Counted from the first letter of the stretch, positions 40,264 to 57,438 are shown. The stretch is 62,254 nucleotides of DNA from Candidatus Yanofskybacteria bacterium RIFCSPLOWO2_02_FULL_45_18 (GCA_001795795.1 MGKV01000007.1:14553-76806); one strand, 5' to 3'. Numbers and translations are program-made. Notes: generated by a model from the sequence alone, not told the origin.

Positions 40264-40335
40264 CCGTAAGACCCTTGTGGTCTTATTTAGTTAAAAGTGC
40301 AAAATTTTTAATTTTTGATTTAAGTATTGGCGATT

Positions 40336-40746: not shown

Positions 40747-41213
40747 TGCGGAGACCTGTCAAAAAAAGAATTGAGATAAATCCGGATATAAAATATTCCA
40801 GCGTTTTGGTTTCCAAATTCATCAACAAAATCATGATTGCCGGCAAAAAATCAATTGCCAGCAAGATCGTATATGGCGCGCTAGAAGATGCCGAGAAAAA
40901 ATTGCAGAAACCCTCGCTGGAAATATTGGAACAAGCCGTGCAGAATGTCAGCCCCTCAATACAGCTTAAGTCCCGAAGGGTTGGCGGTGCCAACTATCAG
41001 ATCCCGGTGGAGGTCAAGCCGGAACGCCGGCTGATGCTGGCGATTATGTGGATTGTCGGCGCGGCGCGGTCGCAAAAAGGCAAAGAGATGAAAGTCAGGC
41101 TTGCTGATGAATTCATCAGCGCTTTCAACAACACCGGCAATGCCGTTAAGAAAAAACTTGACACTCATCGCATGGCCGAGGCCAATAAAGCATTTGCGCA
41201 TTTTGCGTGGTAA
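40746..41213 (+). CDS. rpsG: 30S ribosomal protein S7
   Basis: Position after rpsL. GKKS.A..IVY and RRVGGANYQIPVEV motifs. Confidence 0.96.
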   Translation: MRRPVKKRIEINPDIKYSSVLVSKFINKIMIAGKKSIASKIVYGALEDAEKKLQKPSLEILEQAVQNVSPSIQLKSRRVGGANYQIPVEVKPERRLMLAIMWIVGAARSQKGKEMKVRLADEFISAFNNTGNAVKKKLDTHRMAEANKAFAHFAW

Positions 41214-41224
41214 ATTAGGCAAGT

Positions 41225-41617
41225 ATGATAGAAAGATATTTTAGAAAGGATATCAAACGAGAGATTCCAATTTTTGAAGAAAATGACCTTTTTTCTTTGA
41301 AGGAATTAAGGCGGGGGATGGTTTTTAACTATAAAGGCTACGAAATTACAATTGCTGATCCGACAGCTAAAGATACTACACCATCTCTAATTACTCTCGA
41401 CCTACTTTCTGGGAAATGGATTATTGTTCTTAACGAAGATGTTCCCTTGTCTTTGGTTGTTCCCATTCTTGAGCACGAGGTTTATGAGATAGAGCACAAA
41501 AACCATGAAAAAGCTGTTGAAATTGGAAGAATTAAAGCAGAGGAGTTGGGAGTATTGAATAATTTTTTGGAGTTTGAATATCGATGGCGGGATCATAACA
41601 ATAATTTAAAGCAATGA
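41225..41617 (+). CDS. Hypothetical AT-rich ORF inserted between rpsG and fusA
   Basis: 130-aa ORF whose stop overlaps the fusA ATG (ATGA). Contains a His/Glu cluster, [14 protein letters not shown]. Confidence 0.6.
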
Positions 41618-43716
41618 GAGATTATCCTATCGAAAAAACTAGGAATATCGGTATTATAGCCCACATAGATGCAGGCAAAACGACCGTTTCAGAGCGGGTT
41701 CTTTTTTATACCGGAATTTCTCATAAAATCGGCGAAGTGCACGAGGGCGAAGCGATAATGGATTGGATGGAACAAGAGCGTGAACGCGGCATTACTATAA
41801 CTGCCGCGGCAACAACCGTGTTTTGGGCCCCTACTGATTCATCTGGTTCGGGCGACAAAATTAAGATTAACTTGATTGATACCCCCGGGCATATAGATTT
41901 TACCGTAGAGGTAAAACGCTCTCTTCGCGTGTTGGATGGAGCGGTTGTCGTTTTTGACGGAGTTGCCGGTGTGGAGCCGCAGTCAGAAACCAACTGGCGT
42001 TATGCCGACGATTACAATGTCCCGCGGCTTTGTTTTATTAATAAGCTTGACCGGTTGGGCGCTTCTTTTGACAAATCTTTCCGGTCAATCTTGGAACGGC
42101 TTTCGCCTCATGCGGTTAAAATTCAGATTCCTGACGGCCACGAAGATAAATTTACTGGCGTTGTGGACTTGCTTGAAATGAAGTTCTATGTTTTTGAAGG
42201 CGAAAAGGGAGAAAAAGTCATCAAAAAAGAAATACCGGCAGACCTCGTGGCCGAAGCGGAGAAAGAAAGAGCGATTGCCGTTGAAAAAATTGTTGAAACT
42301 GATGACGAGGCAATGTCGCAATATCTTGAGGGGAAAGAACCCTCTTTGGAAAATCTGCGCCGGCTTTTACGCAAAGCCGTTATTGCCGGTAAAATTTATC
42401 CCGTGTTTTGCGGCTCGGCCTTAAAAAATAAAGGCGTACAACTTATGCTGGATGCGGTGGCCTATTATTTGCCGTCTCCATTAGATGTGCCGGCAGTTAA
42501 GGGCACTGAAGTAAAAACAGGCCAGGAAACAATCCGTGAAGCTCGTGACGACGCGCCGTTCGCGGCCCTAGCTTTTAAGGTTGCCAGTGATCCTTATGTG
42601 GGTCAGCTTACTTTTTTCCGCGTTTATTCGGGAGTTCTCGCGGCCGGTTCATACATTGTTAATACGACCAATGGACAACAGGAAAGAATTGGCCGCATTG
42701 TCCGGCTGCATGCCAACCAAAGGGAGGAAATAAAAGAAATCCATGCCGGCAATATTGCCGCTGCGGTTGGATTGAAGAATACTAAGACCGGCGATACGCT
42801 TTGCGCTCCGGACAGCCAGATTATTTTGGAAAGAATTATTTTTCCCGAACCCGTCATCTCTTTGCGGATTGAACCTAAGACCAAAGCCGACCAGGAAAAA
42901 ATGGGGCTTGCTTTGCATAAACTTTCGGACGAAGATCCCACTTTTCGGGTCGCTGGCGATGAAGAAACCGGTGAAACGATTATTTCCGGCATGGGCGAAT
43001 TGCACCTTGATGTTCTTGTTGACCGGATGAAAAGGGAATTCGGCGTAGGCGCCAATGTCGGCCGCCCCCAAGTTGCTTACAAAGAAACTATTTCTTCAGC
43101 CGCTGAAGCCGAGGGAAAATATATCCGTCAGTCGGGAGGACGCGGACAATATGGCCATGTTTGGCTGCGCGTTGAGCCGAAAGAACGCGGCGGCGGTTAT
43201 GAATTTGTTGACGACATTAAGGGTGGAGTTATACCGCAGGAGTTCATCGCTCCGTCCGAAAAAGGAGTTAAGGAGGCAATGAGCAAAGGTGTTTTGGCCG
43301 GTTTTCCCATGGTTGATATGCAGGTTACTTTATATGACGGTTCTTATCACGAGGTTGATTCTTCGGAAATTGCCTTCAAAATCGCCGCTTCGGCGGCATT
43401 GCGGGAAGCGACCAAAAGGGCCAAGCCGATTCTGCTTGAACCGATAATGAAAGTGGAAATAATCGTGCCGGAACAATTCTTGGGGGAAACAACCGGTGAT
43501 TTGGCCTCTCGGCGCGGGCAGATTATGAGCATTAACGACCGTAGCCCGCTTAATTTAAAAGTTATTGAGTCAAGGGTTCCGTTGTCGGAAATGTTTGGCT
43601 ATGCCACCTCCTTGAGGTCGCTGACCGAAGGGCGAGGTACTTTTAACATGGAATTTGAACTTTACGACATTGTGCCTAATAATATAGTGGCGCAAATTAT
43701 CGAAGGGAAAAAATAA
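41614..43716 (+). CDS. fusA: Elongation factor G
   Basis: [22 protein letters not shown] and NKLD GTPase motifs across 700 aa. Confidence 0.98.
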
Positions 43717-43729
43717 CAAAACCAAGAAT

Positions 43730-43812
43730 CCCGTTAGAGGTAAGCCGCCGAAGGCGGCTACCCGCATCTGCCTCTGGGGATTATTAATTGAAGATGCGGG
43801 ACATCTAACGGG
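43730..43812 (+). other. Three-way-junction structured element (closing stem CCCGTTAGA/TCTAACGGG)
   Basis: Closing stem plus the hairpins GCCGCC-GAAG-GCGGC (5 bp, the sixth 5' C unpaired) and CCCGCATC...GATGCGGG. The closing-stem sequence matches the element at 19134..19212. Confidence 0.6.
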
Positions 43813-44151
43813 ATGGACATAAAAGAATTAAAAAAATTAATAAAAAACGGCGGTTCAGCAGTGATACTTGAAAATGGCGAGCCCTCATTTGTCGTCCTTG
43901 GCTATGAAACTTACAAAAATTTGGACAGTGGAGGCGAGGAGAAGGATATTAAAATAAATCACGCAAATTCTATGCGGCACATTAAGGCGGATACGGATGA
44001 TTATCACAACTCCAATTTTTCCGAAGCGACCAGAGGCAATCTTGAGACCGAAATACTTGAGAAGTTTAATAAGGAGATAGCGGCCATAAAAAGCCAGATT
44101 GAATCGGAAGAGAAAAATTTAATTCAAACCGAAGATTGGCCTGATTTTTAA
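43813..44151 (+). CDS. Hypothetical protein with Phd/YefM-antitoxin-like N-terminus
   Basis: 112-aa ORF. GGSAVILENGEPSFVVLGYETYKNL resembles the Phd/YefM N-domain. No partner toxin ORF. Confidence 0.5.
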   Translation: MDIKELKKLIKNGGSAVILENGEPSFVVLGYETYKNLDSGGEEKDIKINHANSMRHIKADTDDYHNSNFSEATRGNLETEILEKFNKEIAAIKSQIESEEKNLIQTEDWPDF

Positions 44152-44291
44152 AGGACATGTGCGGGGTTGACTTTAACTTATAATTTGCTAAAATACTAAA
44201 ACATACTTATTTTAGTTTCTAGGTTCTAGTTTCTAGGTTTCATCATCCGCGAAAACTATAAGCTACAAGCTATAAACTATAAGCTATTCAG

Positions 44292-45494
44292 ATGGCAGAA
44301 AAATTTGAGAGGACAAAGCCGCATGTAAATGTAGGCACCATTGGCCATGTTGACCATGGCAAAACAACGCTTACCGCGTCGATTTTGCATACTTTAAACA
44401 TGCTTAAAGACGAGGGCTATTCGGCCCGTGTTGAAGCCGTAGACCAGATTGACAACGCGCCGGAAGAAAAAGCCCGCGGTATTACGATTGCCTTGCACCA
44501 CTCTCAATATGAAACTCCGAAAAGACACTATGCCCACATTGATGCTCCCGGTCATGCCGACTATATTAAAAATATGATTACGGGGGCGGCTCAAATGGAC
44601 GGCGCGGTTTTAGTCGTTGCCGCGACTGACGGTCCGATGCCCCAAACTCGCGAGCACATCTTGCTTGCTAGGCAAGTAGGTGTTCCGGCAATTATCGTCT
44701 TCTTAAATAAAGTTGACCAGGTTGATGATCCGGAAATGCTTGATTTGGTTGAGGCCGAGATTAGAGAACTCTTGAATAAATATCAATATCCCGGCGATAC
44801 CACTCCGATTATCCGCGGGTCGGCCTTAAAAGCGCTTGAGTCCAAATCCAAAGAAGATCCGGCTGTTCAGCCGATCAGGCAATTAATTGATGCATTAGAT
44901 AGTTATATTCCTGAACCGCTCAGAGATTACGATAAGCCATTCTTGATGCCGATTGAAGATATTTTTTCAATTGAAGGCCGCGGCACGGTGGTAACTGGCA
45001 AGATTGAGCGCGGAAAAATAAAGTTAAATGATGAAATTGAGATTGTCGGTTTGCGTCCTACAACCAAAACGGTTGTTACCGGCATTGAAATGTTCAACCG
45101 GCAGCTTGACGAAGGCATGGCAGGCGACAACGAGGGAATACTGTTGCGCGGCACCAAGAAAGAGGATGTTGAAAGAGGGCAGGTTTTAGCCAAGCCTAGC
45201 AGTATAACTCCGCATACAGAATTTGAAGCCGAAATTTATGTTTTAACCAAAGAGGAGGGCGGCCGGCATACCCCGTTCTTAAAAGGCTATAAACCGCAAT
45301 TTTACTTTAGGACGACCGATGTAACCGGTGAGACCTTTCTGCCCGAAGGGACCGAAATGGTAATGCCCGGCGACACGGTAACACTAAAAGTAAAATTGAT
45401 TGCTCCTATCGCCATGGAAGAAAAACAGCGGTTCGCCATTAGGGAAGGTGGCAAGACTGTCGGCGCGGGAGCGGTTACCAAAATTATCGCATAA
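44292..45494 (+). CDS. tuf: Elongation factor Tu
   Basis: [18 protein letters not shown] and NKVD motifs. Confidence 0.99.
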
Positions 45495-45557
45495 TAAGCG
45501 CTTGCCCAGCTCTTCTAGAAGGGCCGGGCGATTTGCTCTTTGTAAAGTATCGCAAAT

Positions 45558-45881
45558 ATGGCAAAAAAAGCGGATACCAATCAGAAGATACGGATAAAGC
45601 TTAAAGCATACGATAATAAGATTATTGATAAATCAGCTCGACAGATCATCGAGACGATTGAGCGTTACGGCGTGAAGCCAGTCGGCCCTGTGCCATTGCC
45701 TACTGAAATACGCAAGTATACGGTTAACCGCTCAACATTTATTGATAAAAATTCAAGGGAGCAATTTGAGATGAGAATTCATAAGCGTTTTATTGACATT
45801 CTGTCGCCAACGTCTAAAGTTATTGATGCGCTGATGAATCTGAATTTGCCGTCCGGCGTTGATATAGAAATTAAAATGTAG
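45558..45881 (+). CDS. rpsJ: 30S ribosomal protein S10
   Basis: IRIKLKAYD...GPVPLPT pattern and its position. Confidence 0.96.
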
Positions 45882-46037
45882 GATTATTGTTTCTTTATTC
45901 CCAGCCACAGATCGCTTTGGGGCTGGGGAGTAAGGTAGCAACACCTTAAACAATAATGGTTTTTATTTTATTTAAACCAGTCTAAATACAGTTAGGGTTT
46001 AGCTTTGCGTATAGGCCGGCTAAATCCGGCTTTTAAA

Positions 46038-46625
46038 ATGTCCAAATTCATATTAGCTAAAAAATTATCAATGACTCAAATTTTTGAAGAAGACGGAAGA
46101 GTGGCACCGGTTACTTTGGTTGGCGTTGAACCGAATGTTGTTACTCGCATTAAAACCGTTGGTAAAGACGGTTACCAATCGGTTCAGGTGGGGACGGGAA
46201 GTAAAAAAAACTCCGGCGGCTTTAAATATTTGCGAGAATTTAAGATTACGGAACTAAACGAACAACCGCTGAAAGAGGGGGACAAACTGGATGTTTCTGT
46301 TTTTGAATCCGGAGATATGGTCAGAGTATCCGGCGTAACTAAGGGTAAAGGTTTTGCCGGAGCGGTTAAAAGACATGGATTTAGCGGTATGCCTTCCAGC
46401 CACGGCCACAAATCCGTAAAGAGGCACATCGGCTCTATCGGCCAACGTTTCCCTCAGCACACATTAAAAGGAAAACGCATGGCGGGACATATGGGAAATG
46501 TAAATTTTACTGTCCGCGGGCTGATGATTGCCCGGATTGATAACGATAATCAAATAATCGCAATCAGGGGTGCTGTACCGGGTAATGCCGGTGGTTTGGT
46601 CAAAATTGAGAGCATCAGCAAATAA
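46038..46625 (+). CDS. rplC: 50S ribosomal protein L3
   Basis: KGKGFAG.VKRHGF and GS.G.R..P motifs. Internal ATG at 46038. Confidence 0.95.
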   Translation: MSKFILAKKLSMTQIFEEDGRVAPVTLVGVEPNVVTRIKTVGKDGYQSVQVGTGSKKNSGGFKYLREFKITELNEQPLKEGDKLDVSVFESGDMVRVSGVTKGKGFAGAVKRHGFSGMPSSHGHKSVKRHIGSIGQRFPQHTLKGKRMAGHMGNVNFTVRGLMIARIDNDNQIIAIRGAVPGNAGGLVKIESISK

Positions 46626-46642
46626 TTACCGGGCCAATTATC

Positions 46643-47290
46643 GTGCAAACAAGTTTATATAATCAAAATTGGGAAAAAGTGGGAGAAGTAACTTTGGCGG
46701 AAGATGTTTTTGGCGCAAAAACAAATCAAGATTTGGTTTATCAGGTTGTTACCTCGCAGATGTCTAATCGAAGACAGAATATTGCACACACTAAGACCAG
46801 ATCGGAAACAAGAGGCGGAGGCAAAAAACCTTGGCGCCAAAAAGGCACCGGCAGAGCCAGGCATGGTTCAATCCGTTCGCCGATTTGGAGGGGTGGCGGG
46901 GTTACTTTCGGTCCGTCCAGAGATAAAATTTTTAAAAAGAAAATTAACGAGAAAATGGCGCGAAAAGCCACTGCCGTAGTTTTATCTGAAAAATTGAGGA
47001 GCGATTCTTTGCTGGTTGTTGACAACATAACCCTCAAGGACAACAAAACCAAAGAGATGGCCGAAATTGTGAAGAATATGACTAAAGCGGTTAAGAAAAT
47101 TAAACCCAACGACAGTATCTTGCTGATAACGACCACGCCAGACGAGGGAATTAGGCGGTCTTCTATGAATTTGCCCAGAGTTAATATCGCGGAGGCAAGG
47201 AACATAAATGCCCTTGACTTACTGTCATTCAAATATGCGGTTATTTTGAAAGATGCGGTTGCTGTAATTGCTCAAAACTTAAAACGGTAA
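46643..47290 (+). CDS. rplD: 50S ribosomal protein L4
   Basis: GGGKKPWRQKGTGRARHGS motif. GTG start. Confidence 0.95.
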   Translation: MQTSLYNQNWEKVGEVTLAEDVFGAKTNQDLVYQVVTSQMSNRRQNIAHTKTRSETRGGGKKPWRQKGTGRARHGSIRSPIWRGGGVTFGPSRDKIFKKKINEKMARKATAVVLSEKLRSDSLLVVDNITLKDNKTKEMAEIVKNMTKAVKKIKPNDSILLITTTPDEGIRRSSMNLPRVNIAEARNINALDLLSFKYAVILKDAVAVIAQNLKR

Positions 47291-47296
47291 CAGACG

Positions 47297-47704
47297 TTGA
47301 TGATTAAATTATTTGGCAAAAAAAGAAAAGAAGATAAAACGACAAAGGCGGACAAAGATTTAACTATGCCCGAAACAGTGGCAGAAAAGCGGCCGGTTTT
47401 GGTGATTGACAGCTCCAAGGGCTCTCGGGCTCTCGGGGTCATAAAAGGGATTTATCTTAGCGAAAAGGCCACATTGCTTTCCGGCTATAATCAATATATT
47501 TTCAAAACTTTTGCGAATACCAATAAAAGCGAAGCAGGCAAAATGATAGAAAAACTTTTTAATGTAAAGGTAAAAGCGGTTAAAATATTAAACATGCCGC
47601 AAAAAAGAAAAGATGTCGGAAAACACTCCGGCTTCCGTGCTGGTTTTAAAAAGGCCGTGGTTGTTCTTGAAAAGGGGTATACGATAGAACAAGCCAAACC
47701 GTAA
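47297..47704 (+). CDS. rplW: 50S ribosomal protein L23 (with Lys-rich N-terminal extension)
   Basis: Position. YIFKT....K.E....E.LF.VKV..V pattern in the C-terminal 90 aa. Confidence 0.9.
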   Translation: MMIKLFGKKRKEDKTTKADKDLTMPETVAEKRPVLVIDSSKGSRALGVIKGIYLSEKATLLSGYNQYIFKTFANTNKSEAGKMIEKLFNVKVKAVKILNMPQKRKDVGKHSGFRAGFKKAVVVLEKGYTIEQAKP

Positions 47705-47733
47705 ACAATTTTCAATTTCCATGTATCAATTTT

Positions 47734-47765
47734 CATTGAATTTTCAATGTTACATTGACTCATTG
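47734..47765 (+). repeat. CAATG-hairpin spacer element, copy 3
   Basis: CATTGAATTTTCAATGTTACATTGACTCATTG. Confidence 0.75.
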
Positions 47766-47858
47766 GAAATTGTCCCGGTATCTACTGGTTATAATCAGAA
47801 GAAATCGAGGACTCTCGATAACGAAGTTACCGGAGTAAATTGATAACTGGAAATTTGT

Positions 47859-48683
47859 ATGAAGCAATATAATCCCACAACTCCGTCCAGAAGGCATATG
47901 CAAGGATATGATTTTACCCAACTAAACAAAACGGGTGCTTTCAAGCCGCTTAAAAAGGGCTTCACCCGAGCCGTGGGCAGGAATAATACGGGCAGAATTA
48001 CCAGCTTTCACCGTGGCGGCGGAGTTAAACGCTTATATCGTGGAGTTGATTTTAAACAGGATAAGTTGAACATAGTGGGAAAGGTCATTTCTGTGGAGTA
48101 TGACCCTAACCGTACATCGCGCATTGCACTTTTGGTGTATGTTGACGGAGAAAAGCGTTATATATTGGCTCCGCAGGATCTTAAGGTTGGTGACAAAATA
48201 GTTACGGCAGAAAAAACTGAGATTAAACCGGGGAACCGTATGAAACTTAAGAACATACCCCAAGGAACTCAAGTACACAACGTTGAGTTGTTTCCTGACC
48301 AAGGCGGGAAAATAGTTCGGTCAGCCGGCAGTGCCGCATTAGTTCTTGCCAGCGAGGGGGGTTATGTGCAGTTGGTAATGCCGTCTTCTGAAGTCAGGGT
48401 TATTTCCGGAGAGAGCTTTGCTTCTATTGGCCAGCTTTCAAATGCCGAGCACAATCTTATAAATCTTGGTAAAGCCGGACGTTCAAGATGGCTTGGACGT
48501 CGTCCAAAGGTCAGAGGCACTGCCATGAATCCGGTTGATCATCCGTATGGCGGAGGCGAAGGCAGGCAGGGGCGGGGCACCAGAAGGCCAAAAACCAGAC
48601 ATGGAAAAATAACCGGCGGCAGGAAAACCAGAAATCCCAAAAAAAAATCGAATAAATTTGTTTTAAGGAGAAGGAATAGGTAA
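47859..48683 (+). CDS. rplB: 50S ribosomal protein L2
   Basis: GRNN.GRIT..HRGGG and RG.AMNPVDHP.GGGEG motifs. Confidence 0.98.
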   Translation: MKQYNPTTPSRRHMQGYDFTQLNKTGAFKPLKKGFTRAVGRNNTGRITSFHRGGGVKRLYRGVDFKQDKLNIVGKVISVEYDPNRTSRIALLVYVDGEKRYILAPQDLKVGDKIVTAEKTEIKPGNRMKLKNIPQGTQVHNVELFPDQGGKIVRSAGSAALVLASEGGYVQLVMPSSEVRVISGESFASIGQLSNAEHNLINLGKAGRSRWLGRRPKVRGTAMNPVDHPYGGGEGRQGRGTRRPKTRHGKITGGRKTRNPKKKSNKFVLRRRNR

Positions 48684-48684
48684 C

Positions 48685-48770
48685 AAGAATAATAAGAATA
48701 AGCAGAATTATTAGAATTATAAGGTGCGGCCTGATAATTCCAATAATTCTAAATTCTGATAATTCTAAGT
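48685..48770 (+). repeat. AGAATAATAAGAAT spacer element, copy a
   Basis: AAGAATAATAAGAATAAGCAGAATTATTAGAATTATAAGG... with an internal inverted repeat. Ends 1 nt before the rpsS ATG. Confidence 0.75.
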
Positions 48771-48771
48771 C

Positions 48772-49125
48772 ATGAGCAGAAGTTTAAAAAAAGGTCCATA
48801 TGTAGACCAGCGATTGCTTAAGAAAATAGGCAAGCTTAGGGCTGGAGATAAGGCCGTTGTCAAAACTTGGGCCAGAGCGTCTACCATTGTTCCGGAAATG
48901 ATCGGCTTTACTTTCGGGGTGCATAATGGAAGAATTCACATACCTGTTCTGGTTACCGAAGATATGGTAGGACACAAGCTTGGCGAATTTTCTTTGACAA
49001 AGAAGTTTACCCGGCATGGGGGTCGTATGCAACGTGAGATGGAAGCGGCTCAAAAGCAAAAAGAGATAGAAGCCGCCCAAACCGTAAAAGTGGCAACGAC
49101 GACGCCGGAAGCAGAGAAGAAATAG
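48772..49125 (+). CDS. rpsS: 30S ribosomal protein S19 (C-terminal extension)
   Basis: [11 protein letters not shown] and GHKLGEF motifs. Confidence 0.96.
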
Positions 49126-49190
49126 CCATTAGCCATTAGAAATTGGGCAGAAAATCTCTAAATCCTAATAGCTAAGTCTTAATCACTAAA

Positions 49191-49715
49191 ATGACTGAAG
49201 TATCCGCACAACTTAATAGAATACGATTGGCACCTCGAAAAGTTCGAGCGGTTGCCAATTTGTTAAAAGGCAAAAGTGCCGACAACGCCCTGCGCCAACT
49301 TGAATATCTCATAAAGAAACCGGCCTTGCCTCTTGCCAAACTGATAAAGTCGGCCATTGCTAATGCTGAAAACAACTTCAATATGGTTAGGGAAAATCTT
49401 TATATAAAAAGTTTTATTGTTAACGAAGGGGTGAAATTAAAGCGTTTTAAGCCTAAAGGTTTTGGGCGGGCCGCCATGATCCAGAAGAAAACCAGCTTGG
49501 TAACCTTGGTTTTAGATGAAAAAACCCCCGGTCTCAAAAGGGATAAAAAAGTTTTCCAAGAAGACAAGAAAATTTTAACCAAAGAAGAAGAGGTCCCGAA
49601 AGGTGTTGGGGAGAAAAAACCGGAGATTAAAAGAAAAATCGGACAGAGAAGTTTGATACCGGGGCTAGGGGGACTGAAGAAATTATTTAACAGAAAGACC
49701 ACGGGGGGCTTATAG
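49191..49715 (+). CDS. rplV: 50S ribosomal protein L22 (long Lys-rich C-terminal extension)
   Basis: R.APRKVR.VA.L..GK motif and its position. Confidence 0.93.
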   Translation: MTEVSAQLNRIRLAPRKVRAVANLLKGKSADNALRQLEYLIKKPALPLAKLIKSAIANAENNFNMVRENLYIKSFIVNEGVKLKRFKPKGFGRAAMIQKKTSLVTLVLDEKTPGLKRDKKVFQEDKKILTKEEEVPKGVGEKKPEIKRKIGQRSLIPGLGGLKKLFNRKTTGGL

Positions 49716-49845
49716 GATAATGTTTAATCGTTCAATCCGTTCAATCACTCACATCCGTTCTCTCGTTTTGAACAAATAAAATGATTGAACATCTTGAACA
49801 AGCTAAACCAAGCCTGACTTGGTGAAGCGATAGAACAAAATTGTT

Positions 49846-50481
49846 ATGGGACAAAAAATTTCACCAATTTCATTAAGAATGGGAATTAACAAGGACTGGG
49901 TATCCCATTGGTTTAGCAGTCGTAAATATATTCCCTTTTTGAAAGACGAGGTTAAAATAAGAGATTTTTTCAGGGGGAAGTTGAAAAATATGGGGGTAGA
50001 TCGGATTGAAACAGAACGCGGCACGGACACATTTAATATCACAATTTTTACAGCTCGTCCGGGTTTAATAATCGGCGGAGGAGGTAGCGGCGTTGAAGAA
50101 TTGAAAAAAGCTATCTGCAAGTTGCTAAAAAAGAAAGTCGCGATCAGAATTGAGGTGCATGAGATTAAAACTCCCGAAGCTTCGGCGGCTGTAATGGCCG
50201 AGTCGATTGTTGATCAGATTGAAAAGCGACTTCCCTTTAGAAGGGTGATGAAACAGACGATAAGTAAAATAATGTCCAGCCGGGAAGTTAAGGGTGCCAA
50301 AATAAAAATAGGCGGACGGCTTGACGGGGCTGAAATAGCCAGAGTTGAACATTTGGAGGAAGGCAGTCTGCCATTGCAAACCTTAAGGGCTGATATAGAT
50401 TTTGCCAAAGCTACGGCGCATACAACCTATGGCACCGTAGGGGTGAAAGTGTGGATTTATAAGGGGGAAGTCTTCGAATAA
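49846..50481 (+). CDS. rpsC: 30S ribosomal protein S3
   Basis: MGQKISPISLR, a KH domain and GRL.GAEIAR.E motif. Confidence 0.97.
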   Translation: MGQKISPISLRMGINKDWVSHWFSSRKYIPFLKDEVKIRDFFRGKLKNMGVDRIETERGTDTFNITIFTARPGLIIGGGGSGVEELKKAICKLLKKKVAIRIEVHEIKTPEASAAVMAESIVDQIEKRLPFRRVMKQTISKIMSSREVKGAKIKIGGRLDGAEIARVEHLEEGSLPLQTLRADIDFAKATAHTTYGTVGVKVWIYKGEVFE

Positions 50482-50520
50482 TCTTGCCGCATTTGACATG
50501 TGGCATTTGACCAAGTGTGT

Positions 50521-50548
50521 CAATTGTCAATTGTCAATTGTCAATTGT
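50521..50548 (+). repeat. (CAATTGT)x4 heptamer array, upstream of rplP
   Basis: Four exact tandem units, preceded by CATTTGACATGTGGCATTTGACC at 50490..50512. Confidence 0.95.
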
Positions 50549-50551
50549 TCT

Positions 50552-50959
50552 GTGTTGCAGCCATCGCGAGTAAAACATACTAAAGTTCACGGGGGTAGAT
50601 TGAAAGAAACCACATTGCGCGGGACGACTTTAAGTTTCGGAAGCTTCGGACTTAAAGCGCTGGAAGCTTCTTGGCTAAAAGCCAGTCAGTTGGAATCAGC
50701 TCGTCGAGCCATGACTCGTTTTGTGCAGCGAGGGGGGAAAATCTGGATTAGAGTATTTCCTGACAAGCCTAGAACCGCTAAAAGTTCGGAGGTGGGAATG
50801 GGCGGCGGCCGGGGGGCGCTGTCGCATTGGGTGGTGCCGGTTGAATCAGGTAGGATACTTTTTGAGATAGATGGGTTGCCGGAGGACCAAGCTCGCGAGG
50901 CGCTGCGTTTGGGTGCCCACAAACTGCCCATTAAATGCAGGATAATTAGCCGCAACTAA
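50552..50959 (+). CDS. rplP: 50S ribosomal protein L16
   Basis: A GTG start gives MLQPSRVKHTKVHGGR, matching the uL16 N-terminus. The track N-terminal extension merely reads through the repeat array. Confidence 0.93.
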   Translation: MLQPSRVKHTKVHGGRLKETTLRGTTLSFGSFGLKALEASWLKASQLESARRAMTRFVQRGGKIWIRVFPDKPRTAKSSEVGMGGGRGALSHWVVPVESGRILFEIDGLPEDQAREALRLGAHKLPIKCRIISRN

Positions 50960-51011
50960 CTTGTTCCCGCATCAAGGGACCGATTGGCCCAGCGGCGCGG
51001 GGAGTTGACTT

Positions 51012-51197
51012 ATGAAGAAAAATGAGTTACAAAATAAGGGCCGGAATGAACTATTGTCTTTGTTGGATGAATTAAGGGGCAAGCTTTTACAGCTTGACTT
51101 TGAACGCACAGAGAAGAGGATTAAGGATTCAAGCCAAGTTAAAAAAACAAAACAAGAAATTGCTAGAGCCCTTACGGCTATTAAATCGGCAAAATAA
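51012..51197 (+). CDS. rpmC: 50S ribosomal protein L29
   Basis: 61 aa, helical L..L..EL..LR pattern and its position. Confidence 0.9.
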
Positions 51198-51457
51198 TGA
51201 TTACTGAACACAAAAAAGAAAAAAACGGGCGCATTCTCGACGGCGTTGTCGTATCTGACAAAATGACAAAAACAGTGGTAGTGGAAATTTTGCACTTGAA
51301 ACAACACCCCAAGTATAAGAAATATTTCAAAGTTACCCGACGTTATAAAACGCATGATCCGGAAAGCCGGTACCATGTTGGGGACAAAGTTATAATTCAG
51401 GAAACAAGACCGATATCAAAAGATAAGAGATGGATAGTAGTAAGCAAGGCCGACTAA
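51197..51457 (+). CDS. rpsQ: 30S ribosomal protein S17
   Basis: G.VVSDKM.KT.VV......HP.YKK motif. Confidence 0.95.
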
Positions 51458-51495
51458 TGTATAACATTTGACATGTGACATTTGACCGAATGAGT

Positions 51496-51529
51496 CAATT
51501 GTCAATTGTCAATTGTCAATTGTCAATTG
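51496..51529 (+). repeat. (CAATTGT)x4 plus CAATTG array, upstream of and into the rplN start
   Basis: Preceded by ACATTTGACATGTGACATTTGACC at 51464..51487. The final TTG (51527..51529) is the inferred start codon. Confidence 0.95.
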
Positions 51530-51892
51530 CTACAGCTTCGTTCCATAGTAAATGTTGCAGACAATAGCGGCGCCAAAAAAGTCGGTGTGTTTAAGGTGTT
51601 GGGCGGTTCAAGGAAAGATTTTGCCGAGATAGGCGACACCGTGGTGGTTTCGGTCAAAGTGGCTGAGCCCAGAAAGCTTGTAAAGAAAAAGGATGTCTTG
51701 CGCGCATTAGTGGTTCGTCAGCGGAAACCCTTCAGGCGCAAAGATGGAAGTTATGTCCGTTTTGACGACAATGCGGTTGTTATTCTTGATGGCGTTGAGC
51801 CAAAAGGCGGCAGGATTTTTGGTCCGATTCCGCGTGAGATAAAAGAAAAAGGGTTTAACACGATTGCATCACTGGCGGAGGAAGTGGTCTGA
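51527..51892 (+). CDS. rplN: 50S ribosomal protein L14
   Basis: A TTG start gives MLQLRSIVNVADNSGAKK, matching the uL14 N-terminus. Confidence 0.93.
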   Translation: MLQLRSIVNVADNSGAKKVGVFKVLGGSRKDFAEIGDTVVVSVKVAEPRKLVKKKDVLRALVVRQRKPFRRKDGSYVRFDDNAVVILDGVEPKGGRIFGPIPREIKEKGFNTIASLAEEVV

Positions 51893-51895
51893 TGA

Positions 51896-51980
51896 AAGAA
51901 TAATAAGAATTAACAGAATTATAAGAGTTAGCAGAAGTTGGCCAGATTACTCGCATTATTCTTATACTTCTGCTTATTCC
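51896..51980 (+). repeat. AGAATAATAAGAAT spacer element, copy b
   Basis: AAGAATAATAAGAATTAACAGAATTATAAGAGTTAGCAG... Ends at the rplX ATG. Confidence 0.75.
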
Positions 51981-52286
51981 ATGAAATTAAAAAAGGGAGA
52001 CAATATAATAATGTTAAGCGGAAAAGACAAAGGTAAAACCGGAACAGTGTCGGCTGTTTTGCCGAATTTAAACAAGATGGTGATTGGCGGACTTAACTTA
52101 ATTAAAAAAAATGTGCGGGCGAGAAAACAAGGACAGAAAAGCCAGATAATTTCCAAAGAGAGACCGGTCAGTATATCCAGTGTAGCTCTGATGTGCAAGT
52201 CATGCGGCAAACCAACACGCGTCGGCTTTAGCATTGCGGAAAAAAGCAAAATCCGAATTTGTAAAAAATGCGGAGCCGAAGTTTGA
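51981..52286 (+). CDS. rplX: 50S ribosomal protein L24 with C-terminal CxxC..CxxC zinc-ribbon tail
   Basis: MKLKKGD.V...GKDKGK.G KOW motif. The tail is CKSCGKPTRVGF....ICKKCG. Confidence 0.92.
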   Translation: MKLKKGDNIIMLSGKDKGKTGTVSAVLPNLNKMVIGGLNLIKKNVRARKQGQKSQIISKERPVSISSVALMCKSCGKPTRVGFSIAEKSKIRICKKCGAEV

Positions 52287-52521
52287 TGAGGCGACGCCCC
52301 TCATTAACCCCGCCTCATTTCTGGATGGCGGTCAGCGGATCAGATTGGTGACGGGGTGGAGCGGAAGTTGGATAACTAAATTCAAAATGCAAAAATTAAA
52401 ATGTCCCGACTTCATCGAGGACTCTCGACGGAATCGGAGCAAAATTAATGTCAGTGACAATTCCGCAAGCGGAATTGTCACTTTCCCGAATTTTTAATTT
52501 TTCATTTTAAATTTTATTTCT

Positions 52522-53064
52522 ATGGCCAGATTGCTTGAAAAATATGTGAAAACCGTAAAACCTGCCCTGCAGAAAGAGTTTGGTTTTAAAAATATAATGC
52601 AGATACCGAGGATTGAAAAGGTTGTCATTAACGTCGGGATTGGAAAAATTATCAAAGACGATAAAGCCGTTGATAAGGTTAGAAAAGATCTGGCCCTTTT
52701 ATCGGGCCAAAAAACCATTGCTCGAAAAGCTAAAAAGTCAATCGCCGGTTTTAAAATAAGAGAGGGCATGGAGGTCGGCTATATGGTTACCTTGCGCGGT
52801 AAGAGGATGTATGATTTTATAGATAGGTTGATTTCAATTGCTTTGCCTCGATCAAAAGATTTTCGGGGAATTGATGCCGGAAATTTTGACGAAAGAGGCA
52901 ATCTCAACATTGGCATCAAGGAGCATAACATTTTTCCGGAGATTAGTTACGAAAGCTTAAAAGATATTTTTAGTTTGCAGATTACGGTTGTAACCAAAGC
53001 CCAGAGTCGTGAACAGGCGATTGCCCTGTTGCGCGGCGTTGGGTTCCCATTACAAAAAAGTTAA
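52522..53064 (+). CDS. rplE: 50S ribosomal protein L5
   Basis: NIMQIPRIEKVVIN.G and RGKRMYDFIDRL motifs. Confidence 0.97.
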   Translation: MARLLEKYVKTVKPALQKEFGFKNIMQIPRIEKVVINVGIGKIIKDDKAVDKVRKDLALLSGQKTIARKAKKSIAGFKIREGMEVGYMVTLRGKRMYDFIDRLISIALPRSKDFRGIDAGNFDERGNLNIGIKEHNIFPEISYESLKDIFSLQITVVTKAQSREQAIALLRGVGFPLQKS

Positions 53065-53181
53065 ATATTAAATATCAAAAATCAAAATGACAGATAAAAA
53101 TTCAAAAATAAATAAAATCAGCTCGTTTGTTTTGAGATTTGATTTTTAATTTTTGAATTTGACTGAGTAAAACGAAGGAAC

Positions 53182-53367
53182 ATGCCTAAAAAATCAACAA
53201 TTGCCAGATCAAACAAAAGGCCCAAATTTTCAAGCCGGATAGTGAACAGGTGTTTTATGTGTGGACGAAAAAAAGGATATTTAAGAAAATTTGGTTTATG
53301 CCGTATAGATTTTAGAGAATTAGCTAGCGCTGGCTTGCTTCCCGGAGTAACAAAATCAAGTTGGTAA
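53182..53367 (+). CDS. rpsN: 30S ribosomal protein S14 (short, type Z-like)
   Basis: 61 aa, MPKKS.IA....[24 protein letters not shown]. The fourth Cys is replaced by Asp. Confidence 0.94.
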
Positions 53368-53404
53368 CATACAACCTTTGACACGTGACCCTTGACAGCA
53401 ATGT

Positions 53405-53438
53405 CAAATGTCAATTGTCAATTGTCAATTGTCAATTG
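53405..53438 (+). repeat. CAAATGT plus (CAATTGT)x3 plus CAATTG array, upstream of and into the rpsH start
   Basis: Preceded by CCTTTGACACGTGACCCTTGACAGCAATGTCAA. The final TTG (53436..53438) is the inferred start codon. Confidence 0.95.
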
Positions 53439-53834
53439 GATCCAATCGCCGACATGTTAATAAGGATAAAAAACGCGCAACTGGTTGCGAAAGACCACGT
53501 CGTTTTTCCGTTTTCTAAAATTAAATTTACCATTGCCACGCTGCTTAAAAATAACGGATATGTTTCCGAAGTTAACAAAAGAAAAAGAAAAGCCAAAAAA
53601 ACAGAGCACGATTTTATTGAGATTGTTTTAAAATATTCAAATGGCTTGCCGAGGTTGCAGGGTTTTAAGTTGATAAGCAAACCCTCCCGCAGAATTTATA
53701 TAAAAGCATCTCGGATAAAACCGGTACGTTCGGGATTCGGTATGGCCATTATCTCAACTTCCAAAGGAATTATGTCGTCCAAGGAAGCATGGAAAGAAAA
53801 GTTGGGAGGAGAGCACATATGCGAGGTGTGGTAA
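53436..53834 (+). CDS. rpsH: 30S ribosomal protein S8
   Basis: A TTG start gives MDPIADMLIRIKNAQ, the canonical uS8 N-terminus. Confidence 0.94.
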   Translation: MDPIADMLIRIKNAQLVAKDHVVFPFSKIKFTIATLLKNNGYVSEVNKRKRKAKKTEHDFIEIVLKYSNGLPRLQGFKLISKPSRRIYIKASRIKPVRSGFGMAIISTSKGIMSSKEAWKEKLGGEHICEVW

Positions 53835-53842
53835 GCAAAGAT

Positions 53843-53914
53843 AGAATAATAAGAATTAGTAGAATTATAAGAATTATCGGGACTTTAATCTAATAATTCC
53901 AATAGTTCATAGTT
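53843..53914 (+). repeat. AGAATAATAAGAAT spacer element, copy c
   Basis: AGAATAATAAGAATTAGTAGAATTATAAGAATTATCGG...TAATTCCAATAGTTC. Ends at the rplF ATG. Confidence 0.75.
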
Positions 53915-54460
53915 ATGAGCAAGATCGGCAAAAAACCAATCACAATTCCGCAGGGCGTCGACATCAAAGTCGATGATTCTTCGGTTTTTGCCAAAGGTCC
54001 CAAAGGCGAGATTAGGCGTAATTTGCCAGATATGCTGACTGTTTCGGTGAGTGATGGTTTGGTAACCATAAGTCCGGTCGTTGGTGCTGGCAAGAGAAGC
54101 TCGGCAATGTGGGGTCTTTACCGGTCTTTGGTGCAGAATATGTTAACCGGCGTGGCGAGCGGATTTGAAAAAACCCTTGAATTTCAGGGCGTGGGCTATA
54201 AGGCTAATATCAAAGGCAAGGGACTTGAACTAAGTCTAGGTTATTCTCATCCGATTTTTTACCAAGCTCCGGAGGGTATAAACTTTAGTGTGGAGAAAAA
54301 CAGCATTACCGTTTCCGGTGTTGATAAGGAGTTGGTCGGACAGGTGGCGGCGGATATCAGGTCCAAGCGTAAGCCCGAACCATACAAGGGCAGCGGTATC
54401 CGTTATCGCGGAGAAATTATAAAGAAAAAAGCCGGTAAGAAAGCGGTAGCGACTTCATAA
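53915..54460 (+). CDS. rplF: 50S ribosomal protein L6
   Basis: SKIGKKPI.IP.GV and GVGYKA motifs. Confidence 0.96.
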   Translation: MSKIGKKPITIPQGVDIKVDDSSVFAKGPKGEIRRNLPDMLTVSVSDGLVTISPVVGAGKRSSAMWGLYRSLVQNMLTGVASGFEKTLEFQGVGYKANIKGKGLELSLGYSHPIFYQAPEGINFSVEKNSITVSGVDKELVGQVAADIRSKRKPEPYKGSGIRYRGEIIKKKAGKKAVATS

Positions 54461-54551
54461 CGGCAAATTACAAATTACAGATTCCAAATTCCAAACAAAT
54501 TCCGATGACTGAAGTTTCAGAATTAAACCATTAGAGTTGAATTTAAAAGTT

Positions 54552-54914
54552 ATGGACATAAAGAAAAAACAATTGAATAAGGTAACGAGGCACAAGCGTG
54601 TGCGCGCTAAAATTTATGGTACACCGGGTCGGCCGCGGGTATCGGTCTTTAAAAGCAACCGGCATTTTTATGCGCAGCTGATTGACGATGTTTCGGGTAA
54701 AACATTGACGGCAATAAGCGATTTAACAATATCCAAAGCAAACAAAAAGGGCCGTAACAAGGTCAATATTGCCGGAGAACTGGGTGAATTATTGGGCAAG
54801 AAAGCGAAAGAGCTTAATATCGGCAATGTTGTTTTTGATAAGGGCAGTTTTAAATATCACGGCCGGGTAAGTATTTTTGCTGACGGATTGCGTAAATCGG
54901 GGATTAACGTATGA
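54552..54914 (+). CDS. rplR: 50S ribosomal protein L18
   Basis: RHKRVRAKI.GT..RPR..VF.S..H.YAQ..DD motif. ATG at 54552. Confidence 0.95.
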   Translation: MDIKKKQLNKVTRHKRVRAKIYGTPGRPRVSVFKSNRHFYAQLIDDVSGKTLTAISDLTISKANKKGRNKVNIAGELGELLGKKAKELNIGNVVFDKGSFKYHGRVSIFADGLRKSGINV

Positions 54915-54928
54915 TCTGATTTAATTGA

Positions 54929-55489
54929 ATGGAACAAGAATTAAACAAAACTAGTATTGGGGCCGGATCGAGCGGCGGCCGCCAAACTTTCAAAAGAGGG
55001 CGGCGATTTGGTCGGGGATTTTCCGGTGGAGAGAAACGTTCCGAATATGACCAGAAAGTGTTGGATATTGCCCGAGTGGCGCGGGTGACCAAGGGTGGAA
55101 AAAGATTTAGCTTCCGTGCCACTATTGCAATTGGCGACGGCAAGGGTAGGGTAGGCGTTGGTATCGCAAAAGGAAAAGATGTTGCGCAATCCATACAAAA
55201 AGCCGCCGAACAAGCCAAAAAGAAACTTATTGCCGTAGTAACCGTGAATAATACGATTCCATATCAGGTTGAGGCCAAATACTCCAGCGCGATAGTGTTG
55301 CTAAAACCAGCCAGGGGGGGCGTTAAGGCGGGCGGACCGGTCCGTATAATTACCAAATTGGCCGGCATATCAAGTTTAACCGGCAAATTAATCAGGCGTA
55401 CCAACAACAAGCTGAATATTGCTATGGCCACAATCGAAGCGTTAAAGAAATTAAGGACTCGATCCAAAAATCAAAGCACAAGCGAATGA
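54929..55489 (+). CDS. rpsE: 30S ribosomal protein S5
   Basis: V.RV.KGG.RF.F.A....GD..G.VG.G.GKA motif. Confidence 0.96.
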   Translation: MEQELNKTSIGAGSSGGRQTFKRGRRFGRGFSGGEKRSEYDQKVLDIARVARVTKGGKRFSFRATIAIGDGKGRVGVGIAKGKDVAQSIQKAAEQAKKKLIAVVTVNNTIPYQVEAKYSSAIVLLKPARGGVKAGGPVRIITKLAGISSLTGKLIRRTNNKLNIAMATIEALKKLRTRSKNQSTSE

Positions 55490-55508
55490 TTTTTGGTCAT
55501 CGAACCTT

Positions 55509-55643
55509 ACCCCGCACTTATCAAGGATATGCAGCTTGTTGGTTCCGTGTCAGGATGCTGTATCTAGGGTTTATCCAAATATACCCTGAATCCAGCATCT
55601 TAAACGGCTGCTGTTAAAACCCAATCCTTGATAAGTGCGGGGT
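55509..55643 (+). other. 135-nt extended hairpin at the position normally occupied by rpmD (L30)
   Basis: A 20-bp perfect closing stem ACCCCGCACTTATCAAGGAT/ATCCTTGATAAGTGCGGGGT encloses the nested stems GCAGC/GCTGC, GATGCTG/CAGCATC and AGGGT/ACCCT. Confidence 0.8.
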
Positions 55644-55705
55644 GACGAGTTTTGTAAGCAGTTCGTCTGCTCGCAGACTCACAACTCCTCACTGACAAAA
55701 TCATC

Positions 55706-56179
55706 ATGCAATTACACCAATTACAACCTAATACCTCCAGACGACGGACCAAATATATCGGTCGGGGCGGAAAAAGGGGGACAACCTCGGGTAAGGGCAC
55801 CAAAGGACAGCAATCACGCGCCGGCACCGGAATCAAGCCCGGTTTTCGTGGTGGCGACAATAGGATCTGGCAGCAATTTCCCAAACAGCGCGGAGCTTCT
55901 TCCAAACCGGGCAATGCGCGGCCGCATCACAAGCACCGCTTTTACCAGTTACGGCACGACAAAATGCCAATTTTAAATTTGGCTGACTTTAACCGGTTTA
56001 CCGACGGCGAGGTTGTTACTCCGGCGCTTGTTTTTAGGCAGGGTTTGGTAAACAATATTGATGACGGGGTTAAGGTATTAGCTGATGGCAAGCTTGGTAA
56101 AAAATTAGTCTTTGAAGGATTTGAATTTTCCGATTCCGCCAAAGAAAAAGTGGTCAAATCAGGCTCAACCATCAAATAA
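55706..56179 (+). CDS. rplO: 50S ribosomal protein L15
   Basis: GRGG.RG.TSGKG.KGQ..R.G motif. Confidence 0.95.
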   Translation: MQLHQLQPNTSRRRTKYIGRGGKRGTTSGKGTKGQQSRAGTGIKPGFRGGDNRIWQQFPKQRGASSKPGNARPHHKHRFYQLRHDKMPILNLADFNRFTDGEVVTPALVFRQGLVNNIDDGVKVLADGKLGKKLVFEGFEFSDSAKEKVVKSGSTIK

Positions 56180-57438
56180 TGTCCAAAATCCTACAAATAT
56201 TCCAGCGTCCTGACCTTCGCAAAAAGGTTCTTTATGTTCTGGCCATATTGGTGATTTTTCGTATTGTTGACAACATACCCATTCCTTCGGTAGATCCATT
56301 AAAGTTGAAGGAATTTTTTGCTCAAAATCAATTTTTCGGCTTAATCAGTGCTTTTACCGGCGGTTCCCTGTCAACTCTTTCTATCGGTATGCTTGGTTTG
56401 GGCCCATACATTACGGGTTCCATTATTATGCAGCTTTTGACGATGATTTTTCCTTCGCTGGAGCAGATGTATAAGTATGAGGGTGAAGCGGGGCGGGCAA
56501 AATTCAACCAATATTCCAGAGTACTGACCGTGCCGTTGGCGGCGCTTCAGGGTTATGGGTTTTTGACGCTGTTGGCCCGTCAAGGAATCATAGGTTCTCT
56601 TGGGACTCTTGAATGGGCGACTACAATTTTAGCGGTAATTGCGGGGAGTGTTTTCTTAATGTGGCTGGGGGAACTGATTACCGAGAAAAACGTCGGCAAC
56701 GGCGTTTCCATATTGATTTTGGCGGGTATTGTGGCGCGGTTTCCCACTGATATTAAACAAGCTCTATTTACCTACAGTTCCAGCCAATTATTTACCTATG
56801 TCGGTTTTGTGGCGATTGCCTTGGCGGTGATTGTCGGCGTTATTTATATTTCAGAAGCCCAAAGGAATATTCCGATTAACTATGCCAAGAGAATTAGAGG
56901 GAACAGAGTATTTGGCGGAGTTTCCACCTATCTTCCGATGCGCGTTAACAACGCGGGGGTTATACCCATTATTTTTGCGTTGTCTATTCTTCTTTTCCCG
57001 GGCATGATCGCCAACTTTCTTTCAGGGGCAAGTGTCCCCGTTGTTTCCCAAATTGCAACCTCGGTAGCGGCTTTTCTTCAATCCCAAGTTTGGTACTCCA
57101 TTTTTTACTTTATCTTGGTTTTTCTTTTCACCTACTTTTATACCGCTGTTACCTTTGACCCCAAATCAATATCTGAGAATATCCAAAAACAGGGTGGCTA
57201 TATTCCCGGTATCCGGCCTGGCCCGATGACAGCCCAATTTCTCAATCATTTGCTGAATCGTGTTACGCTGGTTGGCGCTTTGTTTTTGGGTCTGATCGCG
57301 GTTATGCCAAACATTGTCCGCGGCTTTACGGGCATCACATCCTTTACGGTTGGGGGCACCTCTATTTTAATCGTTGTTTCAGTGGCGTTGGAAATTATGA
57401 AACAATTGGACGCTCAGCTTAGTATGTATCAATACTAA
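56179..57438 (+). CDS. secY: Preprotein translocase subunit SecY
   Basis: 419 aa, 10 TM helices, LG..PYI..SII.QL and GGYIPGIRPG motifs. Confidence 0.97.
   Translation: MSKILQIFQRPDLRKKVLYVLAILVIFRIVDNIPIPSVDPLKLKEFFAQNQFFGLISAFTGGSLSTLSIGMLGLGPYITGSIIMQLLTMIFPSLEQMYKYEGEAGRAKFNQYSRVLTVPLAALQGYGFLTLLARQGIIGSLGTLEWATTILAVIAGSVFLMWLGELITEKNVGNGVSILILAGIVARFPTDIKQALFTYSSSQLFTYVGFVAIALAVIVGVIYISEAQRNIPINYAKRIRGNRVFGGVSTYLPMRVNNAGVIPIIFALSILLFPGMIANFLSGASVPVVSQIATSVAAFLQSQVWYSIFYFILVFLFTYFYTAVTFDPKSISENIQKQGGYIPGIRPGPMTAQFLNHLLNRVTLVGALFLGLIAVMPNIVRGFTGITSFTVGGTSILIVVSVALEIMKQLDAQLSMYQY

Follow-up and report, generated by a model that had tools for sequence, protein, structure and literature searches.

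A rod-like hairpin between rpsE and rplO of a Candidatus Yanofskybacteria genome is probably part of a gene-less copy of a small MITE-like mobile element

In most bacteria, the gene for ribosomal protein L30 (rpmD) lies between rpsE and rplO. In the Candidatus Yanofskybacteria genome studied here, the window (the whole stretch of 62,254 nt that was analysed, to which positions without a contig name refer) carries at this place a gap of 216 nt (55490–55705) within the gene order rplR, rpsE, gap, rplO, secY, the four genes being Pfam-confirmed. A sequence-only reading had proposed that the L30 gene is absent and that its slot is filled by a rod-like hairpin, for which a structured RNA, an RNase III site and a palindromic insertion were offered as explanations. 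The locus thus raises the question of what this structure is, how it came to stand between two ribosomal protein genes and how rplO might be translated behind it.

The structure itself was confirmed. The 20-nt inverted repeat that forms a perfect stem at the base of the hairpin is 100% complementary (20/20 positions) and was matched in 0 of 100 shuffled windows; the nested stems described within it (GCAGC/GCTGC, GATGCTG/CAGCATC and AGGGT/ACCCT) can be read in the sequence and also form in its minimum-energy fold. On the plus strand, the gap has a folding energy of −86.5 kcal/mol, compared to −49.7 ± 4.4 kcal/mol for its shuffles (z −8.46), and the minus strand is about equally stable (−88.0 kcal/mol, z −7.8). 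The longest gap-touching ORF has 43 aa (55486–55617) rather than the ∼12 codons read before, and it has no Pfam match. The absence of L30 also holds: a search for PF00327 (Ribosomal_L30) in all six frames of this 97.7%-complete, 627-kb genome gave nothing above 11.7 bits, this best match lying off this contig, and the same domain exceeded the cut-off in 13 of 14 control genomes. That CPR bacteria have lost L30 is established, as stated in a passage of a preprint (bioRxiv 10.1101/2022.01.07.475337). The Rfam scan that had been suggested as a check returned chance-level matches only, when run over 54800–56300 with E up to 10 (18.8 bits where the gathering score is 230, and 16.6 bits where it is 78).

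The structured element begins upstream of the gap, inside rpsE. It is ∼247 nt long (55459–55705) and consists of three abutting hairpins without linkers, P1, P2 and P3 (Table 1); with P1 included, the region 55458–55711 folds at −101.5 kcal/mol (z −10.4). P1 contains a 10-nt perfect inverted repeat (55464–55473 / 55487–55496) and covers the last ∼10 codons of rpsE (RSKNQSTSE) and its TGA, with the stop codon in the 3′ arm. The window rpsE is ∼5–6 residues longer than those of its nearest relatives, which end after ...EALKKLR/K. At the other end, the rplO ATG follows directly after the last base of the element, and the P3 basal pairs G55642–U55707 and U55643–A55706 engage the U and A of the rplO AUG.

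Table 1. Features of the rpsE–rplO region in the window
Feature	Position	Strand	Basis and details
rpsE (ribosomal protein S5)	54929..55489	+	Pfam S5 N- and C-terminal domains; C-terminal domain ends at residue 179/186
P1, left hairpin, UCGAUCCAAAAAUCA ... UGAUUUUUGG..AUCGA	55459..55503	+	Minimum-energy fold; 15 bp
P2, rod-like hairpin	55507..55645	+	139 nt; 22 basal pairs, 20 perfect Watson–Crick (55509-55528 / 55624-55643)
GGGGUGA, P2/P3 junction	55639..55645	+	Invariant or nearly so across the family (alignment A1)
P3, right-hand module, GACGAGUUUUGU ... ACAAAAUCAUC	55642..55707	+	Consensus structure, covariation; model R1, 85.5 bits
rplO (ribosomal protein L15)	55706..56179	+	Pfam Ribosomal_L27A/L15, ORF listing

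The element is not confined to this junction. When the gap was compared with the genome by BLAST, its last ∼73 nt turned up a second time, immediately ahead of the rpsK start codon, and R1, a covariance model of P3, found three copies in the genome, before rplO, rpsK and nusA. R1 matches were obtained in 24 of 62 genomes of the family and in 34 of 105 genomes of the order, distributed over four families across which the architecture is kept. The distribution is patchy, with many genomes of the same genera lacking an R1 match; the highest count, in genome G004, is 20 matches, which represent ∼13 distinct elements, the rest being P1 on the opposite strand. Every copy is co-oriented with the downstream gene, and 52 of the 55 inspected copies are flush with the ATG of a substantial ORF, the other three being followed by GGAGG. 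In ∼25 of 37 copies, P1 has the upstream stop codon either at its foot or within it. The downstream genes are mostly those of ribosomal proteins and RNA polymerase subunits together with nusA, nusG, fusA, ftsZ, groES, dnaK, gyrA, dnaX and ruvA (9 of 10 sampled were Pfam-confirmed and the others were named by their N-terminal sequences), and by our tally about two-thirds of the host genes belong to the translation or transcription machinery. This host-gene bias and the exact abutment to the ATG are unlike purely selfish random insertion, which argues for a part played by exaptation or targeting.

P3 is a real conserved and covarying structure. In its consensus, derived from an alignment of 18 copies, 96% of cells are paired and double changes occur in 11 of 18 pairs, compared to 4.3 ± 1.2 double-change pairs in the shuffle control, where 11 was reached in 0 of 500 shuffles, and to 1–2 when the partners were slid by 1–3 columns. 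The GU of the invariant GGGGU pairs with the A and U of the start codon in 18 of 18 copies. In the window copy, one basal pair of P3 is a C–A mismatch, and the minimum-energy fold favours a local hairpin over P3, leaving the AUG region free. Across copies, this alternative hairpin, which was derived from the window sequence itself, has 87% of cells paired and double changes in 3 pairs; a two-state switch between P3 and the local hairpin is at best weakly indicated.

P1, P2 and P3 occur together in ∼38 of the 40 copies analysed. P2 ranges from 31 to 262 nt and is closed by complementary 12-mers, with G+C-rich arms of the type ACCCCGCC.../...GGCGGGGU that are complementary at 10–12 of 12 positions in ∼38 copies, and the ACCCCGC.../...GCGGGGU closing arms of the window P2 recur in ∼38 other copies. 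The R1 matches on the opposite strand proved to be P1 read backwards. As P1 in this direction matches the P3 model, the element is a true inverted repeat, each end of which is a hairpin. By folding energy, P1 and P2 are more stable in the sense orientation and P3 in the antisense orientation, which is expected from an inverted-repeat origin. Because this origin predicts the same pattern, the strand energies do not separate selection at the RNA level from selection at the DNA level, and the hairpin structures could matter as DNA as much as RNA.

The rpsE–rplO junction was read in 28 relatives of the family (one further locus was left out) and in three metagenome relatives. In all of them, L30 is absent and rpsE stands directly before rplO (28/28 and 3/3). 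The spacers measure 0–16 nt in 16 of the 28 family relatives, often as TAA-t-ATG, and 4–9 nt in the metagenome relatives, and the 12 other family relatives have spacers of 22 to ∼112 nt that are mostly low-complexity or other palindromic sequence. The element was sought at the junction in each of these relatives and found in none (0/28 and 0/3). At the rpsK–rpsD junction of genus g5, a 148-nt element in G004 faces a spacer of 4–6 nt in G034 and G076. These comparisons indicate that the window copy is a lineage-specific insertion. Since the relatives' junctions are tight without L30, the loss of L30 would have occurred long before the insertion, and there was no slot to fill. The slot-filling interpretation was therefore abandoned, as was the hairpin as a conserved feature of rpsE–rplO spacers. 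The sequence-only reading had named conservation of the stem in relatives' spacers as its test; none was seen, and the locus-specific reading fails with it, so that among the three explanations offered the palindromic insertion stands and a locus-specific RNA does not.

The insertion boundaries yielded no consistent target-site duplication or defined termini: on the left, the edge is TAAG or falls inside P1, on the right it is ...C immediately before the ATG, and the genomes compared are too diverged for a base-exact answer. The best match in an L15 search for same-genus relatives was 61% identical. Exact-word scans of public metagenomes and genomes with the arm/P3 junction were uninformative, giving six 18-mer matches in unrelated taxa where an estimated ∼17 are expected by chance. 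In genus g15 (G065, locus L080; G066, locus L084), rpsE–rplO holds a different palindromic element of 111 nt (TCCCGTTAGAAATG ... CATTTCTAACGGG), which is likewise flush with the rplO ATG. As this palindrome differs from the window element, the junction appears to have been invaded independently by another hairpin family.

The relatives with the longest P2 suggest where the rod comes from. Two copies hold an ORF between the arms, before fpg in G008 and before dnaX in G020, and these ORFs match the Pfam GIY-YIG domain (PF01541) with 40.3 and 33.3 bits, respectively, at a cut-off of 22.6. The dnaX copy is a pseudogene and carries the P1 and P3 subtypes of the window copy; in the rplJ copy of G004, only a C-terminal remnant of the nuclease ORF is left. 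With the G008 protein as query, 81 of the 105 genomes of the order proved to have small GIY-YIG ORFs. A single genome has as many as 11; many of these ORFs are intact and several contain stops. The same query found no small GIY-YIG ORF in the genome of the window, where the only GIY-YIG match lies within a 461-aa ORF. Complete units before rplK (G038, G052, G049) and other genes run in the order P1, 5′ arm, ORF, 3′ arm, P3 and host ATG, and they span the stop codon of one gene to the next start codon in the orientation of the host operon. The ATG of the ORF lies in the 5′ arm (CCCCGCCCTCT-ATG-C) and its stop in the 3′ arm (GCT-TAG-AGGGCGGGG), and the encoded nucleases, at 72–97 aa, are roughly as large as a catalytic domain by itself and carry no separate DNA-binding domain.

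Because arms of the same type enclose a nuclease ORF in these relatives, the window copy is best read as a gene-less derivative with its arms collapsed into a rod. P2 accordingly appears to be the counterpart of the arms of complete units, the gene having been lost here; its interior has no detectable similarity to the nuclease ORF. It is from the nested arrangement, and from this only, that we infer that the nuclease drives the spread of the family. The known roles of GIY-YIG enzymes are those of homing endonuclease and repair nuclease, and we know of none that acts as a transposase. Partial forms of the unit are also found. Arm–ORF–arm cassettes without P1 and P3, with an intact GIY-YIG ORF and repeats of the CCTCACACCTACTCA type, are found just ahead of tRNA genes in several of the order's genomes (L141, L146, L151, L155, L156). 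In genus g14, rods of ∼135 nt that are 69–71% identical to the window P2 (CCCGCACTTAT...ATAAGTGCGGG) occur without P3 (G028:C2, L014; G013:C1, L017; G013:C2, L045); these solo rods adjoin the ATG of the next gene directly (GTGCGGG followed by ATG), and another ATG lies 4–5 nt before their left arm.

The gap is probably the larger part of a ∼247-nt gene-less MITE-like copy belonging to a family of small mobile elements found throughout this CPR/Patescibacteria order. The family is multicopy and has empty orthologous sites, fixed orientation with abutment to the start codon, a covarying P3 and, in relatives, nuclease genes enclosed by the arms. The copy would have landed in an ancestrally tight rpsE–rplO junction long after the loss of L30, and it would have lost its nuclease gene, the arms collapsing to the 139-nt rod P2. 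No promoter-like or terminator-like site was found on the plus strand of the gap, and the element is for this reason presumably co-transcribed with the spc operon. Folding into three abutting hairpins would loop out ∼240 nt and, as there are no linkers between them, would set the rpsE stop codon (in P1) beside the rplO AUG (at the base of P3). rplO could then be translated by coupling or reinitiation, or via the SD-like GGGGUGA beside P3. The 3′ end of the 16S rRNA is canonical and reads GGAUCACCUCCUUUCU; GGGGUGA forms seven pairs, one of them G–U, with its UCACCUC and is a possible split Shine–Dalgarno sequence once P2 is opened. RNase III is encoded in the genome (rnc homologue, 142.7 bits) and may cut the P2 duplex, whose 22-bp basal helix attains the ∼20 bp or more of unbroken double strand expected of an RNase III site. 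Stop/start bridging, the SD-like GGGGUGA and RNase III cleavage are predicted effects on rplO expression. Complete units put stop and start codons at P1 and P3 alike, which suggests that the hairpins preserve translational coupling.

This last point can be carried further. The family might be an undescribed autonomous bacterial element whose only gene is the ∼75–95-aa GIY-YIG nuclease and whose P1 and P3 are adapted to re-couple translation across the insert, a proposal that we consider rather unlikely. P1 would then have the host stop codon at one foot and the nuclease AUG at the other, and P3 the nuclease stop and the host AUG. A terminating ribosome would be handed to the next cistron over 45–240 structured nt, in what would be a bacterial counterpart of ribosome shunting.

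The MITE-like explanation has to be weighed against other origins. The element could be of the REP/REPIN type and mobilised in trans by a RAYT-like Y1 (HUH) transposase instead of the GIY-YIG nuclease. The genome does encode a 224-aa protein of the Y1_Tnp family (60.2 bits) with HUH and Tyr motifs, and just upstream of its gene stands a hairpin (CCCCGCAC...GTGCGGGG) whose stem sequence is that of the base of the window P2, within an 87-nt repeat where two contigs break. An IS200-type copy in G025 also has a CCCCGCAC-type hairpin, and the element is an inverted-hairpin doublet as REPINs are. However, the co-occurrence is weak: by our tally, Y1 is present in 15 of the 24 genomes that have the element and in 15 of the 38 that do not, and G065, at 96% completeness, has eight R1 matches but lacks Y1_Tnp. 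In G004 and G008, the arm sequences of the respective genome do not flank the Y1 genes, no R1 match lies beside Y1 genes, and the nuclease ORF sits precisely within the arms; mobilisation by Y1 is therefore quite improbable. A search for the TNB domain PF07282 (TnpB/Cas12f-like) in five element-rich genomes found none. The remaining origins are specific to the locus. A cis-regulatory RNA of rplO (ribosomal-protein leader or riboswitch) or a small RNA gene would account for so stable a fold (z −8.5 to −10.4) right in front of a gene for a ribosomal protein, but it is missing from the junction in 31 relatives, the same module precedes dozens of unrelated genes, no Rfam match was found at E 10, and the gap has no promoter or terminator of its own, which leaves this reading very improbable. 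That the gap is a decayed remnant of rpmD, an L30 pseudogene, is suggested by its position, yet none of the six frames gives a PF00327 signal, Pfam has no match for the 43-aa ORF, the palindrome is homologous to elements at other loci, and the 0–16 nt junctions of relatives without L30 show that the loss predates the insertion; the chance that this is correct is negligible. Both locus-specific candidates, the RNA of rplO and the L30 pseudogene, were rejected, as they are contradicted by the comparative data.

A different kind of alternative, which overlaps the MITE-like explanation, is that whatever its origin, P1–P2–P3 has come to serve highly expressed genes as a functional expression device. 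RNase III would cut P2, P1 would protect the 3′ end of the upstream message, and P3 with GGGGUGA would serve the downstream gene as a split ribosome-binding site or 5′ stabiliser. Strict orientation with 52 of 55 copies flush with the ATG is consistent with such a role, as are hosts that are mostly ribosomal proteins, RNA polymerase subunits, Nus factors, chaperones and FtsZ, the covariation of P3, the pairing of the invariant GGGGU with the AU of the AUG, and an architecture kept across four families. The presence of rnc, the canonical 16S anti-SD, the lack of an obvious SD at most ribosomal protein genes of the window and the sigma-70-like promoters (10–11/12) in the P2 loops of G008 also point in this direction. 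In contrast, the distribution is patchy, with none in many genomes of the same genera, the same host genes of close relatives are without the element, and initiation should suffer when the start codon is bound up in a helix. An exapted intercistronic module is thus a serious possibility, although we lean slightly against it.

Several features by which MITEs are recognised were seen in the element: it is short and non-coding (∼247 nt, with no ORF above 43 aa and no Pfam match for it), its arms are perfect (20/20), it is multicopy, and it is present or absent at orthologous sites. The boundaries gave no consistent target-site duplication in comparison genomes too diverged for a base-exact answer. 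Among co-transcribed MITEs, RNase III acts on the hairpins of NEMIS, ERIC copies extend over stop codons and some Correia copies carry promoters. The element resembles these MITEs (Neisseria Correia/NEMIS, enterobacterial ERIC/IRU, pneumococcal RUP, BOX) in being short, non-coding and multicopy, with inverted-repeat arms that form long hairpins between operon genes, present or absent at orthologous sites, and the promoters of some Correia copies have a parallel in the G008 P2 loops. It differs from them in that no TA or other target duplication was found, in a candidate parent that is a tiny GIY-YIG nuclease and not a DDE transposase, in its three hairpins and strict co-orientation with the host gene, and in a right end that lies exactly at the start codon (∼95%), with the AU of the AUG in the last helix. 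Free-standing GIY-YIG homing endonuclease genes (T4 Seg, I-TevI relatives, fungal mitochondrial intergenic ORFs) are likewise the only gene of a small, selfish, intergenic insert and frequently decay to pseudogenes and ORF-less remnants. Unlike them, the ORFs here have only 72–97 aa and no separate DNA-binding domain, long inverted repeats overlap the ORF's own start and stop codons, and the many non-homologous sites per genome are transposition-like and do not resemble allelic homing.

With the REPINs/BIMEs mobilised by RAYTs, the element shares two inverted hairpin units able to pair mutually, an extragenic and multicopy occurrence and a RAYT-like gene in the genome, but it is much longer, has no recognised GTAG-type head, co-occurs weakly with Y1 and holds a nuclease gene within its arms. 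In genes 38 and 25 of phage T4, a hairpin bridges a split ribosome-binding site, and on the 35S RNA of cauliflower mosaic virus ribosomes shunt over a hairpin in the leader. The model for the element is similar to these in placing a stable hairpin between a translation signal (the SD-like GGGGUGA or the upstream stop) and the start codon; it differs in that the start codon is partly paired and the bridged distance would be 60 to >240 nt. The closest known kinds are thus co-transcribed bacterial MITEs and free-standing GIY-YIG homing-endonuclease genes, and the combination here is unlike both: repeats that overlap the start and stop of the nuclease, flanking hairpins, strict stop-to-start placement and a paired start codon. 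A full-text literature search found no description of such elements in CPR.

For annotation, these results mean that a long structured spacer in a ribosomal-protein operon of CPR bacteria is not to be taken for the relic of a lost gene or for a leader specific to one gene, since at least the one between rpsE and rplO is a mobile-element copy. A selfish element would here reside inside the most essential operons of genomes of 0.5–1 Mb, and its way of doing so would be to fill the exact stop-to-start interval and fold itself out of the way. If the nuclease truly mobilises the element, it would be among the smallest autonomous elements known, and if the hairpins truly bridge stop and start, they would offer a natural system in which to study how bacterial ribosomes reinitiate across structured RNA. 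Strain-level insertion polymorphism in groundwater CPR populations could also be followed with the element as a ready marker.

Several further observations were made in the window and in the relatives. Most ribosomal-protein genes in 40300–55000 have no GGAGG-like sequence before the ATG, despite the canonical 16S 3′ end; examples are the spacers before rplP (50498–50551), rplN (51480–51530), tuf (44200–44291), rpsS (48685–48771) and rplF (53843–53914). Many window spacers consist of low-complexity tandem words, such as CAATTGT repeats, AGAATTATAAGAAT words and CTATAAGCTA words, and spacers of word repeats likewise occur in relatives at rpsE–rplO and rpsK–rpsD. In G008:C4:42000-48500 (L039), the three best sigma-70-like sites of the S10–spc cluster (931–959, 1758–1786 and 4895–4923; T[AG]GACA-17-TA[TA]AAT, 10–11/12) lie exactly in the P2 loops before rpsC, rplP and rplF, and TGGACA-17-TATAAT is also present in the rplP copy of G065. 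Transcripts from the G008 sites would start beyond the 5′ arm, so that the G-rich 3′ arm (AAAGGAGGGGGU) would have no partner to pair with.

The ∼87-nt repeat near the Y1 gene ends two contigs of the genome (C15:1-110 and the reverse complement of C12:5640-5729), and the assembly breaks there. It holds a P3-like 3′ half (GCAGACAAAACTCG...CATGAC) and the hairpin described above, with one copy just upstream of the Y1 gene (C15:111-785) and the other upstream of an SD-led gene. Finally, gyrA of G034 (C46, L106/L107) and of G076 (C2, L105/L108) matches the N-terminus of G004 GyrA in two blocks that lie ∼1.1–1.4 kb apart in one open frame (678 and 1288 aa open), a pattern that resembles an insertion in frame, perhaps an intein, which G004 does not have.
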